A stretch of DNA of 64,000 nucleotides from Spirochaetia bacterium. Lineage in GTDB: Bacteria > Spirochaetota > Spirochaetia > SP-2023. Under the pieces are notes generated by a model. It had not been told where the DNA came from. It saw only the letters and a list, made by a program, of their open reading frames with translations, and ran no database searches. A program made the position numbers and the translations under genes. Where the stretch lies: positions 768,001-832,000 of the forward strand of contig CBDDCK010000005.1 of the NCBI GenBank assembly GCA_965225855.1, in the 5' to 3' direction. Positions 30,186 to 41,533 of this stretch are shown piece by piece; within the stretch, counting starts at the first letter, position 1, and each line of letters opens with the position of its first letter.

Positions 30186-31931
30186 ATGGGCTTACTGCAA
30201 TATAATTTATTCAGTAGTTATCTGCGCTCAATCAAAACCAACCCTTTCTTGCTATTATTTGCTGCTGGTTTTTTATTTGCTCTAAGCTTTCCCAGTAGCC
30301 TTGCCCCATTTTCTTTTTGGCCGTTCTCTTTGCTAGGCCGTGTAGTAGAGCAAGGGTTGCCCATTATGGCTTTTGTTTTTGCTTTACCATTGCTCCAAGT
30401 TTTGCAACAATTGCGCAGCTTAGGTCAGTCCATACGCTATGGCGCATTCTATGGTTTTAGTAGTTATTTATTACTTAGCCTTTGGTTGCTCACTTATGAC
30501 TGGATTGCTTTTATTCTCATACCCGGTATTTATCTTTACTATTTTAGTATCTTTTTTACTGCACACTTACTATTGAAAAAAATTATGGCAAAGTATGCCC
30601 TACCCTCTTGCCTCAATTACTTCAGTTTTGTTGCCCTTTGGTTGCTGCTGGAATACTTAAAATCCACGGGTTGGGTGGCATATACTTATGGCAGCTTATT
30701 GTATAGCCATTATTTATATCCCCATATTATTTATTTTAGTCGTAACTTTTTTCTGCAAAACCTTGCTTACATCTTGCTGCTAACACCCTCAATTTGCTGC
30801 CATGCTTGGCTCACAGGGAAAAAACCAAAATTCAAAAAGTGGGGCTTACTGTTTGCAAGTTTAGCCATTGCAATCCTAAATTTGACTTTTATTGCTAAGG
30901 TAGACAATTTTGCTTCTGTGGATTCCCATACGGAATTGTTAAGGCAAACAAACCAAAAAGCCATGCCCACAAGCCCCAATACTCTAAATATTGCTTTGAT
31001 TCAGCACAATATTAATTCTTGGCAAACGGAAAAAAATACCGATCGGCAAGCACTGAATCGTTTATTAGTATTGAGCCGCCAAGCAGAAAAAGCCAATGCC
31101 GAGCTGATCATTTGGTCAGAAACCGCTTTTGTTCCGCGATTCCGTTCATACCGCAATCAAAAGCTTGGCCCGATCAAACAGAGTATAGAGCAATTAGAAC
31201 AGCAATTGCATCAAAATCCAGATACTAATATCGCAAAAAATTTAAACTATTTTCGCCTGCGCTATAATGAAATTTTACTTAGCCATAAGCTACAGAATTA
31301 TTTAAAACAAGTCCAGGCAACCTACTTAATTGGCACCAATGACAACAAAGCCTTTGTCAAAGAAAAACGTTGGGGGCTGTACAATGGTATGTTATTGATT
31401 CGCAATGGCGAAATTTTAGCTACGTATCATAAGAAACGCTTAGTGCCTTTCAGTGAAGAAGCAAAGTTTGAAGACTTATTGCCAGAGCTGAATAATTACT
31501 TGCAAAAAAATAATTTTGCCCAATATAGTTCGGGTACCGGCAGCCCAATAGTGCCAGTACCTTTGCAAAATAAAACTCTTCGCCAACTAAATATTTATGC
31601 TATGATTTGTTATGAAGATTCACTGCCATTGTATTGGCCACACCGTTTATTTACCCCGCCTCAGAAGAGTTCTGTGCTAGCCAAGCAAAACTTTGATATA
31701 TTACTGTCCATTTCTAATGATTCTTGGAGCCCATCGCCGGTTGGTGGTTTACAACATTTAAGTAGCTCGATTAGCCGAGCAGTGGAAACGCAAAAGTATT
31801 TTTTGCGCGGCAGTACTTCAGGGCAAACAACAGCAATAAGCCCTAAGGGCCAGATATTACAGCGTTTGCCCGCTAATGTTCCAGCTATTTTATATTTTCG
31901 CTTGCCTTTGGATAAGCTAAATGGCAGGTAA
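30186..31931 (+). CDS. lnt: Apolipoprotein N-acyltransferase
   Basis: Multi-TM N-terminus; nitrilase triad IWSETA, YHK..LVPFSE, ICYED. Confidence 0.88.
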   Translation: MGLLQYNLFSSYLRSIKTNPFLLLFAAGFLFALSFPSSLAPFSFWPFSLLGRVVEQGLPIMAFVFALPLLQVLQQLRSLGQSIRYGAFYGFSSYLLLSLWLLTYDWIAFILIPGIYLYYFSIFFTAHLLLKKIMAKYALPSCLNYFSFVALWLLLEYLKSTGWVAYTYGSLLYSHYLYPHIIYFSRNFFLQNLAYILLLTPSICCHAWLTGKKPKFKKWGLLFASLAIAILNLTFIAKVDNFASVDSHTELLRQTNQKAMPTSPNTLNIALIQHNINSWQTEKNTDRQALNRLLVLSRQAEKANAELIIWSETAFVPRFRSYRNQKLGPIKQSIEQLEQQLHQNPDTNIAKNLNYFRLRYNEILLSHKLQNYLKQVQATYLIGTNDNKAFVKEKRWGLYNGMLLIRNGEILATYHKKRLVPFSEEAKFEDLLPELNNYLQKNNFAQYSSGTGSPIVPVPLQNKTLRQLNIYAMICYEDSLPLYWPHRLFTPPQKSSVLAKQNFDILLSISNDSWSPSPVGGLQHLSSSISRAVETQKYFLRGSTSGQTTAISPKGQILQRLPANVPAILYFRLPLDKLNGR

Positions 31932-32557
31932 GGCGAACCATAGTCAAAATGCAATAAGCAGGCTAATGCTCACTTGACAATTTGTTCTGTAATTATGCTT
32001 TACTATTTCAATTCTACTTCAAAGGAGTATGCAATGGCAATTACCTAAGCATATACCACCCCGAACTATAAATGGCCTGCAACTTTGTATTTTACGGTTA
32101 GCCAAGCCATAGGGATAACAAACTAGCTTGGCAGCAGAAAAATTTTACCTATGAGGTGGTCTTTGGGTGTGTTATTTTTTGTGGGTGTATCCAATAATAA
32201 TCGACCTAATCCATAACTATCGACTTCAAAATTCCAATAGTTATTGGGGTGTTTTGGTGTGGGCCTTTTTTGAGGGTTGGCCCAAAAACTTGAAATCAAA
32301 GGGCTAAGTAATCAGACCTTTCATCTACATTTTTAGATGTAATAACAAAGACAAGAGAAAAAGACAAAATAATTTATATCAAATTTTATTAAATCTGCAC
32401 TAAATCCTTTCTAATTTTGTCCCAGAATCAAATCTTTCAATGAAATCACCTTGACTCGTAATCTATTTTGGCTCATAACTGATGCAGGACGTGATAACTT
32501 TGTGCCATCGGACGTGATAACTCGATTTTTTTCTCCATACCAAGGCTATAATTTGAT

Positions 32558-32592
32558 AAAAGCAGCCTTGATAAAAAATTTACCAAGGCTGC
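32558..32592 (-). terminator. Putative intrinsic terminator of the lipoprotein gene
   Basis: GCAGCCTTG/CAAGGCTGC stem followed by a T-run on the minus strand, just after the stop. Confidence 0.55.
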
Positions 32593-32630
32593 AATTGGCC
32601 AATGCAAGCGTTGCAACAACCAAACCCTAC

Positions 32631-35129
32631 TTACCAATTTACAACTTGAATAGCATTGGTTGGTACTGCTGGACTACCAATTCCAAATCCTGCTGCTGCT
32701 TCAAGGTTGTATGCACCATCATTATCACTTTTACCAACCTTAACCAGTATCTTATTGGCTTCCGCTTTTACACTACCGCTTAAAATAATCCTTACGCTTG
32801 TTGTACTTGCATCAGAACCTGTGGCTGTGTTTTCACCTGCAGCTGTGTGCTGGGGTAATGTGTATTTCTTACTACCATCACCGGATACAATCGTCAATTT
32901 GCTAAAGTCCCACTCTGCAACTGTTGGCGGTAACCTGCTACCTTTAATAAATAACAAGCCTGTACGAGAATTGTAGACTAAGTTGGTGATCTGGCTTACA
33001 TACCCACTAACGGTAATCGGGTTATTGCTTGTGTCTGCTGCGCTACCACCTGCAAATCCTGCTGCTGCTTCCAGGTTGTATGCACCAGTATCATCACTAT
33101 CACCATTCTTAACCAATATATCCGTGGCTTTCGTTACTTCATAACCCTTTAAAGTAATCGTTAAGCTTGTTGTACTTGCTGCAGAACCTGTGGCTCTAGT
33201 AAAACCGATTGGGTTGTGGTTTTGTAATGGTTGACTCTTACGACCATTACCTGCGACAAACCTCAATTTGGTGAAGTCCCAGCCTGTAACTGCTTTTGGT
33301 AAATTAGTACCTGTAATCACTAACACGCCTGTAGCAGCATTGTAGGTTGCACGGGTAATTGCGGGTGGGTTACCACTAACGGTTAAGTCTTTGGCTGTAT
33401 CTAAACCCGCCCAAGCACCAGTGCCAACGCTAAGCAACCTATCTTTTCTACCATTGCTATCCATACCGGTCTTGCCATTCAGAGTAGCTTTATCGTCATC
33501 GGTAAGGTAAAGCCAAAGCGCTGTGCCATCGCTATGCAGGCGGTACTTACCTTTTGCAAGACCACGACTATCTGGCCCAGTGGCTGTGCCATCTGCAGTA
33601 TAGGAATCTAAAGCTATCCCATCTACCGTGATGGTTTGGATTTGGGCTTGGGTCGCAGTTGTAGGACTTAAGTTAGAACCTTGTACGGTTAACAGCGCCG
33701 TGCCAACATGGTAGGTTGCACTGGTAATTGCGGGTGGGTTTCCACTAACGGCCAAGGCTTTGGCTGTATCTAAACCCGCCCAAGTACCAGTGCTAGTAAG
33801 CAACCCATCTTTTAGACCATTGCTATCCATACCGGGCTTGCCATTCAGAGTAGTTTTATGTCGATCGGTAAGGTAAAGCCAAAGCGCTGTGCCATCGCTT
33901 TTCATACGGTACTTACCTTTTGCAAGACCGCGACTATCTGGCCCAGTGGCTGTGGCAGTATAGGAATCTAAAGCTACCCCATCTACCGTGATGGTTTGGA
34001 TTTGGGCTTGGGTAGCACTAGCTAAGAGAGTACCTTGCAAGGTTAACAGCGCCGTGCCAACATGGTAGCTTGCACCGGTAATTGCGGGGTTTCCACTAAC
34101 GGTTAAGGCTTTGGCTGTATCTAAACCCGCCCAACTACCAGTGCTAGTAAGCAACCCATCTTTTAGACCATTGCTATCCATACCGTCCTTGCCATTCAGA
34201 GTAGTTTTATGTTGATCGGTAAGGTAAAGCCAAAGCGCTGTGCCATCGCTTTTCATACGGTACTTACCTTTTGCAAGACTGCTACTATCTGCCCCAGTGG
34301 CTGTGCCATCTGCAGTATAAGAATTTAAGACTAGGTCATATACTTTGATGGTTTGGATTTGGGCTTGGGTCGCATTACCTAAGTGAGTACCTTGTACGGT
34401 TAACAGTGCCGTGCCAACATGGTAGCTTGCACGGGTAATTGCGGCTTTAGGCGACTGCTCTTCGGCTTTAGGTTGCTTAGGCGACTGCTCTTCGGTTTCG
34501 GTCTTAGACTGCTTATCTTCGACTTCTTCGGTTTGTTCGGCTTCGGGTAGTTCATGCGACTGCTTATCTTCAGCTTGTTCGACTTCTTCAGCTTGTTCGT
34601 CTTGTTCAGCTTCTTCAGTTTGCTTAGATGGCTGATTGTCATCGGATACTTTAGACTGCTTATCGGGTATATTCCTAACGGTTAAGTCTTTGGCTGTATC
34701 TAAACCCGCCCAAGCACCAGAGCCAACGCTAAGCAACCCATCTTTTCTACCATTGCTACCCACCTTGGCCTCAAGAGTAGCTTTATCTTTATCAGTAAGT
34801 CTAAGCCAAAGCTCTGTGCCATCGCTTTTCATACGGTACTTACCTTTTGCAAGACCGTTACTATCTGGCCCAGTGGCTGGGTCATCTGCAGTATAGGAAT
34901 CTAAAGCTACGCCATCTACTACGATGGTTTGGATTTGGGCTTCTGTAGGACTTAAGTCAGTACCTTGTACGGTTAACAGAGCCGTAGCAAAGTCGTAGAT
35001 GGCATTATTGATAGACGGCCCAGAAGATGGCCCAGAAGATCGATCATCGTCATCGGGTGGGGCGCAGGCCAAGGCCATAAAGGCCAGTAGCCAGGCTACT
35101 GGCAATAAAAGTAGTTTGAGCTTATACAT
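32631..35129 (-). CDS. Repeat-domain surface lipoprotein (832 aa)
   Basis: GGAGG RBS; MYKLKLLLLPVAWLLAFMALA-C lipobox; four ~120-aa repeats, an acidic linker and two C-terminal repeats of a second type. Confidence 0.85.
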   Translation of the reverse strand: MYKLKLLLLPVAWLLAFMALACAPPDDDDRSSGPSSGPSINNAIYDFATALLTVQGTDLSPTEAQIQTIVVDGVALDSYTADDPATGPDSNGLAKGKYRMKSDGTELWLRLTDKDKATLEAKVGSNGRKDGLLSVGSGAWAGLDTAKDLTVRNIPDKQSKVSDDNQPSKQTEEAEQDEQAEEVEQAEDKQSHELPEAEQTEEVEDKQSKTETEEQSPKQPKAEEQSPKAAITRASYHVGTALLTVQGTHLGNATQAQIQTIKVYDLVLNSYTADGTATGADSSSLAKGKYRMKSDGTALWLYLTDQHKTTLNGKDGMDSNGLKDGLLTSTGSWAGLDTAKALTVSGNPAITGASYHVGTALLTLQGTLLASATQAQIQTITVDGVALDSYTATATGPDSRGLAKGKYRMKSDGTALWLYLTDRHKTTLNGKPGMDSNGLKDGLLTSTGTWAGLDTAKALAVSGNPPAITSATYHVGTALLTVQGSNLSPTTATQAQIQTITVDGIALDSYTADGTATGPDSRGLAKGKYRLHSDGTALWLYLTDDDKATLNGKTGMDSNGRKDRLLSVGTGAWAGLDTAKDLTVSGNPPAITRATYNAATGVLVITGTNLPKAVTGWDFTKLRFVAGNGRKSQPLQNHNPIGFTRATGSAASTTSLTITLKGYEVTKATDILVKNGDSDDTGAYNLEAAAGFAGGSAADTSNNPITVSGYVSQITNLVYNSRTGLLFIKGSRLPPTVAEWDFSKLTIVSGDGSKKYTLPQHTAAGENTATGSDASTTSVRIILSGSVKAEANKILVKVGKSDNDGAYNLEAAAGFGIGSPAVPTNAIQVVNW

Positions 35130-35192
35130 AAGCAATACCTCCAACAATGGATAAAGATTAGCCAACCCATACGGGCTAGTGCATAGAGCCCT

Positions 35193-35221
35193 ATTGTGTT
35201 AGGGGGGGGGAATTGAGTCAA
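35193..35221 (-). promoter_or_regulatory. Putative promoter with a C9 tract in the spacer
   Basis: Minus strand TTGACT-caattCCCCCCCCCtaa (17 nt)-CACAAT. Confidence 0.6.
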
Positions 35222-35569
35222 GGCCCATATAAGCTTTTTGTAAGTTTTTTACAAGTTTTTTTGTTTTTTAGTGTTGTAAGGTAGTTAAAAATCAATGCCA
35301 ATCAAAAGGCTTGAGATTATTTGAGATATCTTGAGATTGCTTGAGATACCTTGGGTAAAAATTTGTAATACGCTAGACGCAGTCCGGGTGTTGCGTTGCG
35401 TATGATCGTAGTAAACATCATGGCACAAAGTATAAGAATTTGGTATAAGAATTTGAGTTTTTTGTATCGCAGTACAGCCCAGTTTTTAGCAAAATAATAC
35501 AATACAATTTTTTGCGATTTTTTTAGAGACTGCCACAGTCTCATTGGAAAATTCCCAGGTTGCAAATCA

Positions 35570-35612
35570 AAAAAGCTAGTAAGGTTTTCAGTCAAAACCT
35601 TACTAGCTTTTT
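35570..35612. repeat. Perfect 19-bp inverted repeat with 5-nt loop
   Basis: AAAAAGCTAGTAAGGTTTT-cagtc-AAAACCTTACTAGCTTTTT. Confidence 0.85.
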
Positions 35613-36106
35613 GAGACCGTGGCCCGTTACCATGATATTTTGAAAGCATATTGTTGCCCAATTACTGCCGACAACCCATATGCCGAAAAACAAAAATTTT
35701 TTACTTGTTCCATTTGTGGATTCAGCCGAAAGGCACAAAAAAGCGGTGCATGGTTTGGTTATCCTAGCACCGCTTTGGCTTTTTGAAGTTTTGAGCGTTT
35801 TTGCTCTGGTTTGGTGTTAAAAATGGATTCTGGCTTTTTCTCGTGCAATGAAAAATTTTTTACTTTTTTATTTTGGAAAGTAAGCCAATTTTTACCTTCC
35901 ATTTGTCCCAAAAATCCCGAGTTATCACGTCTTATCCCGTTCAGTTATCATGTCCTCTTTCACATAACCACTGCTTTGTTTTTGCTAAGTTTTTTATTCA
36001 ATAAAGGAATTAAATAGCCAGCCAGATAGTTTTCCAGTAGCATTTTTATCTTTTGTTCATTGCTATAGAGCGAATTTTTAACAATCTTCGCAACATTGAA
36101 TGTAGA

Positions 36107-37759
36107 ATGAAAACAGCCATTATTTCTCGCAGTAAATCTATTATTATCGTGATGTTGGGGACTTTTAGTTCTCGATTTCTAGGCTTTGCGCGAAATGCAA
36201 CTATTGCTTTTTATTTTGGTGCTGGTGAAAAAGCCGATGTATTGAATTTTATTCAGGCTATCCCATTGTTATTACGCCGTCTAGCTGCCGAAGGTTCACT
36301 GGAAACCGCATTAGTTCCCGAATTGGTACGCAGCTATGAGCAAGACCCTAGTTTTCTTAGCAGTAAAGCTATCTGGCGTAAATTATTGGCGGTGCAATGG
36401 TGTATACTTTTGCCACTGTGTTTATTGCTTTGGCTTTTTCCTAATCAAATTATTGACCTTTTAACTGAATTTCCAAAGCCGGAGCAACGGCAGCTAGCCA
36501 GCCAAATGCTGTATTACGTAAGCCCTTATGTTTTTTTACTTAGCCAAAGTGTGTTGTTAGGGGCTCTACTTTCCAGCCAACAACGTTTTACCCTTAGCTC
36601 GTTTACGCCTTTATTTTTCTCTGTAACGATTATTGCTACGACTGTTTGGCTGCAAAAATACTACAGTGTTTTTGCTGTATTATGGGGAATGCTGGCTGGC
36701 ATTGTGTTGCAATTACTGTTTTTGCTCCCGCCTATTTTACGCTCTGGTTATGCTTTATTGCCTTATTTTCGGTTATCTGATTTTCGCTTCGACCCTGCGA
36801 TAAAACGGATTTGCCAAGTATGGCTACCACTGTGGTTTAGCACGAGCCTTTTGGCTTTAATGCAGTTCGTGGCCCATTATTTGGCCTCCCAAACGCAAAG
36901 CGGCAGTATTTCGGCTTTGACCAATGCTTTAATTTTCTTTCAATTGCCGCAAGGGTTGATTTATGCTTCCATTGCCAAAGTTTGCTTACCTCAAATGAGC
37001 CAGCTTGCCGACCCGCGTACGACTCAAGTATTGCGCTACGGTTTGCAACAGTTATTGATATTATTGCTCCCAGCAACTCTCGTGTTATTTATGATGAGCG
37101 ATGCGCTGGTGGCTATAGCATTTCAGCGGGGTGCTTTTGCTTTGCAAGATACTTTGCTCACAGCCGAGGTGCTGCGCTATTATATTCTGGGAACTTTGCC
37201 GATTGCTGGTTTCCGTTTTTTGCAGCAATATCTGTATGCACAATCGCACAAGGTGCAGCCGTTGCTGCAAACTTTTTGGGTAGTGGCAATGGATATACCT
37301 TTGTCTTTTTACTTAATAGAGAAAATTGGTGTAATTGCTTTACCGATTGCCAATACTTTTAGTTATAGTGTGGTTGGGCTGTATTCTTATTTTATTACAG
37401 CAAGATATAGTCATAAAGATGGTGGTGGGCTGTTGTGTCGTGTACGTTGGCATCGCCTGTGTTTTGGCTTATTGCCAAAATTATTATTGGTGTGTGGTTT
37501 GCTACAGATACTCGATAGAGGGCTAGTTTATGCCGAGCAATACCTATTTGATAGAACTACACCCAATTTTTTGAATAATCTACGGCTTACGGCACAAGGG
37601 TTGGAACAGAGTCAACAATGGTGGTGGAGCCAAGGTGGTACCCTGCACAACTTCGGCATTTTGGCTATCCATGGTTTGATTTTACTAGGATTTTTTATTG
37701 TATTGTGCCGCATTATTCATATACCGTTGCTCAAACAATCGAAAATAAAAACAGTTTAA
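36107..37759 (+). CDS. murJ: Lipid II flippase
   Basis: SRFLGFARN..IA..FGAG, RRLAAEGSL, FQRGAF; many TM segments. Confidence 0.9.
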   Translation: MKTAIISRSKSIIIVMLGTFSSRFLGFARNATIAFYFGAGEKADVLNFIQAIPLLLRRLAAEGSLETALVPELVRSYEQDPSFLSSKAIWRKLLAVQWCILLPLCLLLWLFPNQIIDLLTEFPKPEQRQLASQMLYYVSPYVFLLSQSVLLGALLSSQQRFTLSSFTPLFFSVTIIATTVWLQKYYSVFAVLWGMLAGIVLQLLFLLPPILRSGYALLPYFRLSDFRFDPAIKRICQVWLPLWFSTSLLALMQFVAHYLASQTQSGSISALTNALIFFQLPQGLIYASIAKVCLPQMSQLADPRTTQVLRYGLQQLLILLLPATLVLFMMSDALVAIAFQRGAFALQDTLLTAEVLRYYILGTLPIAGFRFLQQYLYAQSHKVQPLLQTFWVVAMDIPLSFYLIEKIGVIALPIANTFSYSVVGLYSYFITARYSHKDGGGLLCRVRWHRLCFGLLPKLLLVCGLLQILDRGLVYAEQYLFDRTTPNFLNNLRLTAQGLEQSQQWWWSQGGTLHNFGILAIHGLILLGFFIVLCRIIHIPLLKQSKIKTV

Positions 37760-40516: not shown

Positions 40517-41533
40517 ATGAATAGCTATCAATACTGCCAAAACATTCCGAAAGCGGAGCTGCATATCCATATTGAAGGCTCTTTAGAGCCTGAACTGATG
40601 TTCCAATTGGCACAGAAACACAGCCTGGAACTGCCGTATTCCAGTGTCGAATAGCTTAGGCAAGCCTATCAATTCTCGAATTTACAAAGCTTTTTAAACA
40701 TTTACTATCAGGGGGCCAGTGTGCTGCTAGATGAAGATGATTTTTATGAGTTGATGATGGCTTACTTGCGCAAAGCGAAGTTGGACAACATTCAACGCGC
40801 CGAGATTTTCTTTGACCCCCAAACCCACACTAGCCGAGGCGTGGCCTTTGAAACGATGGTAAAGGGCTTGCATCGCACTATGAATCAAATGCAAGAGCAG
40901 ACAGGTATTTCCTGCAGCTTGATTATGTGCTTCTTGCGCCACTTGGGCGGCGAGCAAGCCTTTCAGTTAATGCAGGAAGCATTGCCGTACAAACAATACT
41001 TTGAAGCCGTTGGTTTGGACTGTTCCGAGCAGGGCTTTGAGCCGTCTTTGTTTGTGAAAGCCTATGACTTAGCCAGAGAACATGGCTTTGACCTTGTGGC
41101 TCATGCGGGCCAAGAAGACCCGCCTTGCTACATTAGGCAAGCAATGGATTTGCTCCCATTTCAGCGAATTGACCACGGGCTACCCATTATAGAGGATGAA
41201 TAACTTATGCAAAGAGCCATTGAATCCCAGTTGCCATTGACCATGTGCCCACTGTCTAACTTCAAGCTATGCGCTGTGCCCAGCTTAGAACAGCACCGAT
41301 TGAAGAAGCTGTTAGACAAAGGTTTGTGTGTTACTATCAATTCAGATGACCCTGCTTATTGGGGGGATTACTTGGCTGAAAACTATATTCAGAGTGCCAA
41401 GGCCTTGGGTTTAAGCCGTAAAAATCTATACCAATTGGCCAAAAACAGCTTTACTGCTTGCTTGATTAGCGATGAACAATGCCAAGCGTATTACCGCTTG
41501 TTAGAGCAGTTTGAGAAGAATTTTAATGAATAA
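40517..41533 (+). pseudogene. Adenine/adenosine deaminase pseudogene
   Basis: [29 protein letters not shown]; in-frame stops TAG 40652-40654 and TAA 41201-41203; HAGEE appears as HAGQE. Confidence 0.88.

Follow-up and report, generated by a model that had tools for sequence, protein, structure and literature searches.

A lipoprotein-bearing element with the ends of a B3/BcepMu-type transposable prophage, probably a natural mini-prophage, and a predicted poly-C promoter switch in a spirochete genome

A 64-kb window of a spirochete genome (G000:C5:768001-832000, window position 1 being G000:C5:768001, where G000 is the 2.7-Mb host genome) contains, between the host genes lnt and murJ, a 3.5-kb element with a single predicted lipoprotein gene that is very probably a natural mini-prophage derived from a B3/BcepMu-type transposable prophage of the same genome. 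The ends of the element match those of the prophage, such ends flank lipoprotein genes elsewhere in one fixed orientation and 6-bp target duplications accompany them, which together argue for a natural mini-Mu, likely moved in trans. The fuller reading, in which a mini-prophage with surface-lipoprotein cargo was inserted in trans and is switched by slippage of a poly-C tract in its promoter, is in our judgement likely. The phage transposase accounts for the window copy and for part of the lipoprotein family, not demonstrably for all of it, and that it was the main disperser of all 108 copies is a possibility we lean slightly against.

The element starts with TG at 32480 and finishes with CA at 35961-35962. 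As inverted repeats the first 20 bases of its two ends are 16/20 identical (33/45 over 45 bases), and each end bears two exact copies of RGACRTGATAACT placed 23 bp apart, at 32487 and 32510 on the + strand and at 35920-35932 and 35943-35955 on the - strand. These four are the only matches in the 64 kb with at most one mismatch, compared with a mean of 0.20 in shuffled sequences, none of 100 shuffles reaching four. In end A the two 13-bp sites follow a TGA-N5 start; end B begins in the same way with its site at 35943-35955, then that at 35920-35932, and continues into ~200 bp of phage-internal DNA. The 13-bp sites are likely to be transposase-binding sites. The termini and their degree of identity, the paired sites, the CATAAC duplication and a lipoprotein as the only clear gene inside had all been described in a sequence-only reading of the window, and each of these points stands: the 832-aa open reading frame (ORF) is the only long one in the element, the shorter ORFs that overlap it being 80-114 aa.

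32474-32479, no strand: left copy of the 6-bp target duplication CATAAC, whose central TA fits the bias of the family's flanks
32480-32542, + strand: end A, a copy of the prophage right (tail-side) end, with 94% identity over 64 bp to G000:C5:1293704-1293767, aligned with the prophage and phage Bise ends
35713-35962, - strand: end B, a copy of the prophage left end, with 89% identity over 260 aligned bases to G000:C5:1257688-1257947
35963-35968, no strand: right copy of CATAAC

The rve integrase core has one match in the genome, an unbroken 586-aa ORF at C5:1273165-1274925 whose residues D144, D238 and E274 are invariant among five homologs. This transposase matches phrog_310, and a 279-aa ORF two genes on, the transposition ATPase, matches phrog_296. 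The surrounding 36-kb region encodes terminase, portal, repressor, Mor-like activator, protease, capsid, sheath, tape-measure and baseplate proteins (PHROG matches for 15 of the 19 ORFs tested) and is bounded by a B end at its start and an A end at its finish, with ~36.1 kb between them. Phages of the B3/BcepMu type are recognized by head, tail and Mor-like genes in a unit of 36-39 kb and by a DDE transposase related to those of B3 and Tn552 together with a transposition ATPase, and the prophage has both sets of features; the best phage matches of its transposase are Komp_PAO1_1, Bise, Ps59, BcepMu and B3 (28-38% identity). Transposases of the B3 type leave 6-bp duplications (extract of PMC8705779). 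The end design, TGA-N5-site-10 bp-site with a 23-bp period, recurs at both ends of the prophage of a congener, whose transposase is 55% identical, and the TGA-N5 two-site design is also found at the right end of the isolated phage Bise; across seven aligned ends 15 columns are invariant. Beyond the terminal sites the element ends extend into phage-internal DNA by up to 670 bp (B) and 350 bp (A). The comparison with Tn552 and IS21-like elements that the sequence-only reading had drawn holds in part, as the transposase is of a Tn552-related class (extract of PMC8705779) but the parent is a B3/BcepMu-type prophage and not such a transposon. The transposase had no sequence match in the PDB, and a related-locus search of viral contigs found no relatives.

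Several further traces of the prophage were noted. At G000:C3:774-928 a right end of the prophage directly adjoins part of the prophage repressor gene, the outcome that self-transposition would give; many prophage fragments of 50-400 bp are scattered across the genome, some close to family genes; and a 46-bp tandem repeat family occurs at C5:1264372-1264473, at C5:1292605-1292855 and in more than 15 other places.

Scanning the genome with two end patterns, type A (TGATGCAGG) and type B (TGAAAGAGG, TGATCCGG and TGATACGG), yielded 63 ends (32 type A, 31 type B), or about 60 ends for one full transposase gene. Fifty-seven of them lie in one fixed orientation beside lipoprotein family genes (30 B ends upstream, 27 A ends downstream), three more are prophage right ends, and similarity between end copies stops at the TG. 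Of the 108 family genes 40 have ends (17 both, 13 B alone, 10 A alone) and 68 have none. The two-ended units measure 2.35-3.70 kb and have both phage ends correctly oriented with no transposase inside, the arrangement of a mini-Mu. An exact 6-bp duplication is kept in 5 of the 17, in unique flanks (chance 0.0019 per pair, about 1e-10 for five of 17), so that duplications of the length made by the helper mark independent insertions, again as in a mini-Mu. TA lies at the centre of the 6-bp target (positions 3-4) in 24 of the 58 distinct flanks, compared with 7.9% genome-wide and with no peak at other offsets; single ends share this bias, so that most ends mark true insertions. When the six duplication-flanked units were removed in silico, no long reading frame was regained, 140 codons being the maximum, and the insertions therefore appear to be intergenic. 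The sequence-only reading had envisaged a non-autonomous cargo element mobilised in trans and possibly spreading variable surface antigens or adhesins, with sister ends and an autonomous transposase to be sought in the genome; the 63 ends, the 108 paralogs, the 6-bp duplications and the cognate transposase in the 36-kb prophage, the only rve transposase found, support this proposal.

Two composite units are larger. In the first (G000:C5:1590138-1616622) an outer A/B pair 26.5 kb apart, flanked by an exact CCTAAT duplication and located between two converging genes, encloses host genes and four family genes, and in the second (C5:1027022-1041147, 14.1 kb), whose flanks match at 5 of 6 positions, host genes lie between two lipoprotein units. 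Host DNA is transported between two same-orientation copies of Mu, and the composites resemble this. The single-site A ends at C1:131313 and C5:4244 have 52 bp of outer flank in common, beginning GATGCAGCAC, like the A terminus, and a pseudo-end may have been used there.

A second candidate end, TGTAAC-N3-GCACGCAAAAT, lies downstream of and faces inward at 16 of the 108 copies, mostly with a sharp stop at TGT. In the form TGTAAC-N3-GCACG(A/C)AAAATGAAA it occurs for example at C5:93018, 430776, 1319633 and 1566944, and orphans lie at C1:27100 and C5:1452844 and, in the congener G001, at G001:C4:30410 and 609882; the copies at C1:27100 and G001:C4:30410 have two sites 22 bp apart. It is possibly the fossil of an earlier wave.

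BLASTP of 3,895 ORFs gave 114 matches to the window lipoprotein, of which 108 share its ribosome site and start; the other six were dropped as fragments or distant homologs. The 108 paralogs (105 of them longer than 430 aa) make up 8.2% of the genome and are dispersed singly, with a median gap of 16.6 kb on C5. The window protein consists of a signal peptide with Cys22, an Asp/Ser/Pro tether and four type-1 and two type-2 immunoglobulin (Ig)-like repeats of ~120 aa, with a Glu/Gln-rich linker after the first repeat, and most paralogs combine the signal peptide with one to five type-1 and two or three type-2 repeats. By lipobox rules the MALAC or MAFAC at the end of the signal peptide is atypical and also fits an A-X-A site; the distant homolog at C4:210671 has LTAC.

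32562-32592, - strand: hairpin 3' of the lipoprotein gene with a 14-pair stem and T tail, a putative terminator
32631-35129, - strand: cargo gene, an ORF for a predicted 832-aa lipoprotein (from the ATG)
35064-35129, - strand: signal peptide ending MALAC, its Cys invariant in the 107 paralogs read; lipidation and surface exposure would follow
35389-35712, no strand: upstream segment found mainly in end-bearing family members, including a perfect 19-bp inverted repeat at 35570-35612

The genes are mosaics. Successive 200-nt windows of the window gene have different best partners, several of the proximal ones matching at 99-100% and the final three at 88-91% identity, and across 103 genes the median identity falls from 77% in the first repeat to 61% in the last; these window and domain identities are the measure used, block lengths being left out since sub-blocks are hidden by the identity filter. 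A model of residues 467-832 (predicted local distance difference test score 86.6) has three tandem beta-sandwich domains like those of tandem Ig arrays, as an Ig-like repeat protein would have, and its best structural match is the S-layer protein SbsC (Z 8.2, root-mean-square deviation 2.5, 95 aligned residues), a shared fold that shows no function. A profile search with the repeats reached 431 representatives with E <=0.001, the listed ones being mostly longer than 1,000 aa; of 14 representatives scanned, four have DUF4347 and some have cadherin-like, Big_9, Calx-beta or RTX domains. For the lipoprotein itself the Pfam families CrtC, DUF6679 and CotO gave no significant single stretch or fell below cut-off, and an Atlas search returned unnamed clusters only, of low recognition value. 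The vlsE and tprK systems reportedly have one expression site and promoterless partial donors; the family here is not of this silent-cassette type, all 108 members keeping ribosome site and start and all having a promoter motif.

Divergent homologs at G000:C5:353655, 571733, 206266 and 1734765 and at C4:210671 (ORFs of 145-1,315 aa, three with fixed 17-bp promoters) are candidates for ancestral resident genes. Upstream of many end-less family genes lie G-rich possible quadruplex tracts, for example near C5:427600 and C5:1477350, and 34 of 77 quadruplex-type motifs are within 1.2 kb of a family start, the copies being related and so not independent. Quadruplex motifs aid gene conversion in other bacteria.

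The family promoter, TTGAC(G/T)-N5-polyC-N3-CA(A/C)AAT, lies ~63 bp before the ATG and has its poly-C tract in the spacer between the -35 and -10 hexamers, a family-wide pattern beyond the reach of the sequence-only reading of the window.

35162-35179, - strand: leader hairpin
35193-35221, - strand: predicted sigma-70-type promoter TTGACT-17-CACAAT
35202-35210, - strand: poly-C tract of nine residues (G9 on the + strand) in the promoter spacer, predicted ON state

Among 107 such motifs genome-wide the spacers measure 13 bp (1), 14 bp (19), 15 bp (85), 16 bp (1) and 17 bp (1, the window copy). The window copy is the only one to reach a 17-bp spacer through tract expansion, and its C9 is the only C/G run of at least nine in the genome; a 3-bp insertion brings another copy to 17 bp, and spacers of this length also occur in three divergent paralogs that lack a pure tract. 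Promoter-like matches upstream of tRNA genes (n = 38) have spacers of 13 (1), 14 (5), 15 (0), 16 (9), 17 (15), 18 (3), 19 (3) and 20 bp (2), and one of them joins the same hexamers, TTGACG and CAAAAT, with a spacer of 17. The common seven-C promoters have no alternative -10 at 16-19 bp from the -35. The seven-C form was also seen outside the assembly, as a 2-base deletion at 35202 in five contigs of run X1, contigs that merge paralogs, and the 8-C and 9-C tracts belong to different promoter sub-lineages. A homopolymer in the -35/-10 spacer with length variants spanning the working spacing is the mark of a slipped-strand promoter, and on these sequence grounds ON/OFF phase variation of the family by poly-C length is predicted with somewhat better than even confidence. 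Taking 14-15 bp as OFF and 16-17 bp as ON, about three copies would be ON in the consensus, one added C would turn a seven-C copy on, and the window copy is predicted to be the clearest ON candidate in the assembled consensus. The copies predicted to dominate the transcripts are the window copy (C5:800631-803165), that at C5:1901464-1904511 (17 bp) and that at C5:1508615-1510501 (16 bp). A 16-nt motif from the leader hairpin occurs 109 times genome-wide, in all cases but one ahead of a family gene; the remaining occurrence falls within the early region of the prophage (C5:1270717), directly behind a tRNA-like stem that has a GGTTCGATTCC loop.

The same end motif bounds phage DNA in three genomes, and in the congener G002 each prophage end is single-copy, so the ends have not expanded there. 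With the query used, the lipoprotein was not found in 40 related genomes, including three congeners that are 89-92% complete; a word-based homolog search found 89 proteins, all but five apparently from the host genome itself, and the repeat alignment gave no match in a related-locus search of genome contigs. The paired-end pattern occurs in none of 400 other genomes of the phylum, a sample drawn apart from G001-G003. Contigs of run X1 are identical to both element flanks and extend 26 and 29 letters into the ends, below the 31 letters set for bridging of the flank/element joints; X1 is possibly the assembly's own source. Runs X4 and X6 (study P2) yielded contigs that differ at a few positions in lnt and murJ, and the summed depth, which is not a copy number, is far higher on both end bins than on the flanks, a hint that a related strain also has repeated ends.

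Four other explanations were weighed against this reading. Operators of a host regulator of the lipoprotein family would account for the 30 B ends upstream of family genes, and regulator sites upstream of many genes, with no other copies of the ends, was also the outcome that the sequence-only reading had set against itself. However, 27 A ends lie downstream, copy similarity stops at TG, duplications and target bias flank the ends and the motif bounds phage DNA in the three genomes; the terminal position and the duplications refute the operator explanation, which is left with next to no probability, and a host factor could bind the motif in a secondary role. Very improbable too, and already largely refuted, is a non-autonomous derivative of an ordinary insertion sequence (IS) or Tn552/IS21-like transposon unrelated to the phage. 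TG...CA ends, repeated sites and 6-bp duplications are common to such elements, and the transposase does match IS21, IS481 and IS3 models weakly, at 48, 31 and 27 bits far below the cut-offs of 224, 160 and 160, but the only rve gene is in the prophage and the ends lead on into phage-internal DNA. A Y1 transposase was looked for in the genome and not found, and an IS1595-family transposase (one full-length match, G000:C5:896632-897060, plus two fragments) has no link to the element ends. A stronger contender, which we regard as possible but less likely than not, holds that the phage ends are late passengers in a family spread mainly by gene conversion and illegitimate recombination or by an older element, the phage transposase having moved a minority that includes the window copy. 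It would explain the 68 end-less copies with their ragged repeat boundaries, the ends copied together with their flanks and the second candidate end with its two orphans in G001; against it, 40 of the 108 copies still have an end in one fixed orientation, the mosaic structure speaks for recombination frequent enough to erase ends, and the second end type could be matched to neither a partner end nor a transposase, nor to a convincing duplication. Other observations also weigh against dispersal by the phage transposase. Twelve of the 17 two-ended units have no duplication, phage left-end-internal DNA lies within 1.6 kb upstream in only four of the 68 end-less copies, and five B ends have 20-64 bp of identical flank in common, so that some copies arose without fresh transposition, copied by recombination. 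Duplication cross-matches between distant ends number two beyond the six paired cases, which is chance (null mean 1.9 over all A x B pairs). The prophage itself has no 6-bp duplication, its left terminus being damaged and its flanks different, and the C5 helper looks, from its sequence, decayed, its portal ORF being short and its tape-measure and baseplate-J genes split, so that it need not be active today. A second prophage copy, with baseplate J intact, runs off the end of C4 and another partial copy stands at the start of C3, and an intact phage copy in an assembly gap is thus possible. Finally, no empty site came to light: G001-G004 each have lnt and murJ, but at a great distance from each other or on separate contigs, the neighbourhood is not conserved in any of three congeners, where the genes have other neighbours, and in contigs of four runs no joint across the element appears among the 15 of 33 joints listed.

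For the promoter the alternative is that the poly-C tract is no switch, the 15-bp form being the working one (weak but uniform, or activator-dependent), the copies co-expressed and C9 a neutral slip or assembly error. That 85 of 107 promoters have exactly 15 bp fits such uniformity. The T-runs of the ends come in lengths of 6 and 7 as well, no less variable than the neighbouring C6/C7, so the spread of the C-tracts is not special, and 1-bp differences between the two prophage copies show that assembly repeats can carry indels. The predicted switch is weakened further by a strict intergenic scan, in which spacers of 14 (11), 15 (3), 16 (16) and 17 bp (9) include a sizeable 14-bp share; by a plain promoter scan of the element, with 6 sites compared with 8.3 in shuffles and hence no excess; by MutS, which is present in the genome and would slow slippage of tracts so short; and by the nine-C tract, which is seen in the assembly only, the X1 contigs confirming seven-C and not nine-C. 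However, none of the 38 tRNA promoter-like matches has a 15-bp spacer, seven-C promoters offer no second -10 at a workable distance, the divergent paralogs keep 17 bp and one copy regained it by insertion, and the seven-C form is real outside the assembly. We consider the absence of a switch unlikely.

Under the mini-prophage reading the history of the family may be pictured as follows. The match of the ends to those of the prophage is joined by a 6-bp duplication and a target bias of the kind expected from its transposase class. As the orientation is fixed, one founding capture would have set a lipoprotein gene within a pair of ends, one left and one right, and TnpA/TnpB of a resident prophage would then have made new copies by replicative transposition, which twice apparently took along 14-26 kb of host DNA between two units. 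Recombination among copies would have turned all the genes into mosaics, with ends and flanks exchanged or lost, a pattern seen in the sequences. With six or seven C the spacer of 14-15 bp is predicted to allow little transcription and with eight or nine C the spacer of 16-17 bp to allow it, so that a cell would display one or a few of ~105 variants. The proteins may be Ig-repeat surface rods with the distal domain most variable, which would give the cell a changeable coat or set of adhesins in the face of antibodies, phages or predators. More tentatively, the spirochete may have domesticated transposable-phage chemistry, keeping a decayed prophage as transposase donor that seeded default-OFF cassettes, possibly in successive waves from two different elements, with recombination making mosaics and poly-C slips picking the variant; this extension is plausible but doubtful.

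Both genes flanking the element lie outside it:

30186-31931, + strand: host gene lnt, apolipoprotein N-acyltransferase (Pfam CN_hydrolase, LNT_N)
36053-37759, + strand: host gene murJ (Pfam MurJ; TIGR01695 over cut-off)

The target site (32451-32479) resembles a promoter facing murJ, TTGACT-17-CATAAC with CATAAC as the -10, which insertion of the element would have parted from murJ. Elsewhere in the window (40721-41533) two consecutive ORFs of 160 and 108 aa read like pieces of what we take to be one adenine/adenosine deaminase. FlaA is a spirochete marker, and the host genome has three FlaA genes over cut-off, compared with none in 14 control genomes.

If the proposal is true, it shows how a transposable phage can lead directly to a surface-variation system of its host, and gives a concrete answer to the origin of large dispersed antigen families in spirochetes. 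The ~105 near-identical promoters, differing mainly in spacer length and with three predicted ON, form a ready test, and the short ends with an unbroken TnpA/TnpB are a candidate transposon tool for spirochetes, the need for which is stated in an extract of PMC8705779. The parts are all known (B3-type ends and duplications, non-autonomous elements, spacer phase variation, lipoprotein families); the combination is unusual, its absence from print not being established. No account of a surface family amplified by a natural mini-transposable-phage came up in a mostly open literature, where supplementary prophage tables could list similar units, and an extract of PMC8987985 describes no such natural unit.

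With B3/BcepMu-type phages (B3, Bise, BcepMu, and the Leptospira TG-CA prophages of an extract of PMC8705779) the element shares the transposase class, TG...CA ends, the 6-bp duplication and a ~36-kb parent, its end design being nearly identical to the Bise right end, but it is 2.4-3.7 kb long with no phage gene and a host-type surface gene as cargo. The giant DUF4347/cadherin/RTX repeat adhesins are related to that cargo through both repeat types, which match repeats in proteins of 1,000-7,000 aa, several of them with DUF4347, Big_9, cadherin-like, Calx-beta or RTX domains; the form here is short, multiplied and lipoprotein-anchored, and the anchor and export domains of the adhesins are absent. 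Engineered mini-Mu and mini-D3112 combine phage ends and cargo with a helper in trans, as the element probably does, and to our knowledge mini-Mu elements are known as laboratory constructs. In contrast to these, the element is natural and present in dozens of copies with one cargo family whose genes are apparently kept intact; mini-Mu and mini-D3112 figure as laboratory tools in an extract of PMC8705779. The nearest spirochete parallel is given by the IS605 stem-loops of Borrelia, mobile-element ends beside paralogous lipoprotein genes without a transposase, but these are single 3'-end stem-loop relics of an HUH element, with no paired ends or duplications reported in the extract of PMC2775950. 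The vlhA genes of M. gallisepticum (extract of PMC6258824) and vlp of M. hyorhinis (extract of PMC2268961) likewise form large lipoprotein families with their own promoters and a repeat length that sets ON or OFF. For vlhA there are 3-5 cassettes with GAA repeats upstream of a non-sigma-70 promoter and 0-3 genes per genome at the ON length, though others are also expressed (extract of PMC6258824), whereas here the genes are dispersed singly, probably phage-mobilised and furnished with a short poly-C in a sigma-70 spacer. Closest in promoter design are tp0126 and the tpr poly-G promoters of T. pallidum, spirochete surface genes in which a homopolymer likewise sets the -35/-10 distance, tp0126 being best transcribed when the poly-G brings the spacer to 17 (extract of PMC7864442); there a handful of genes with no mobile element are involved, whereas here ~105 genes are combined with phage ends.

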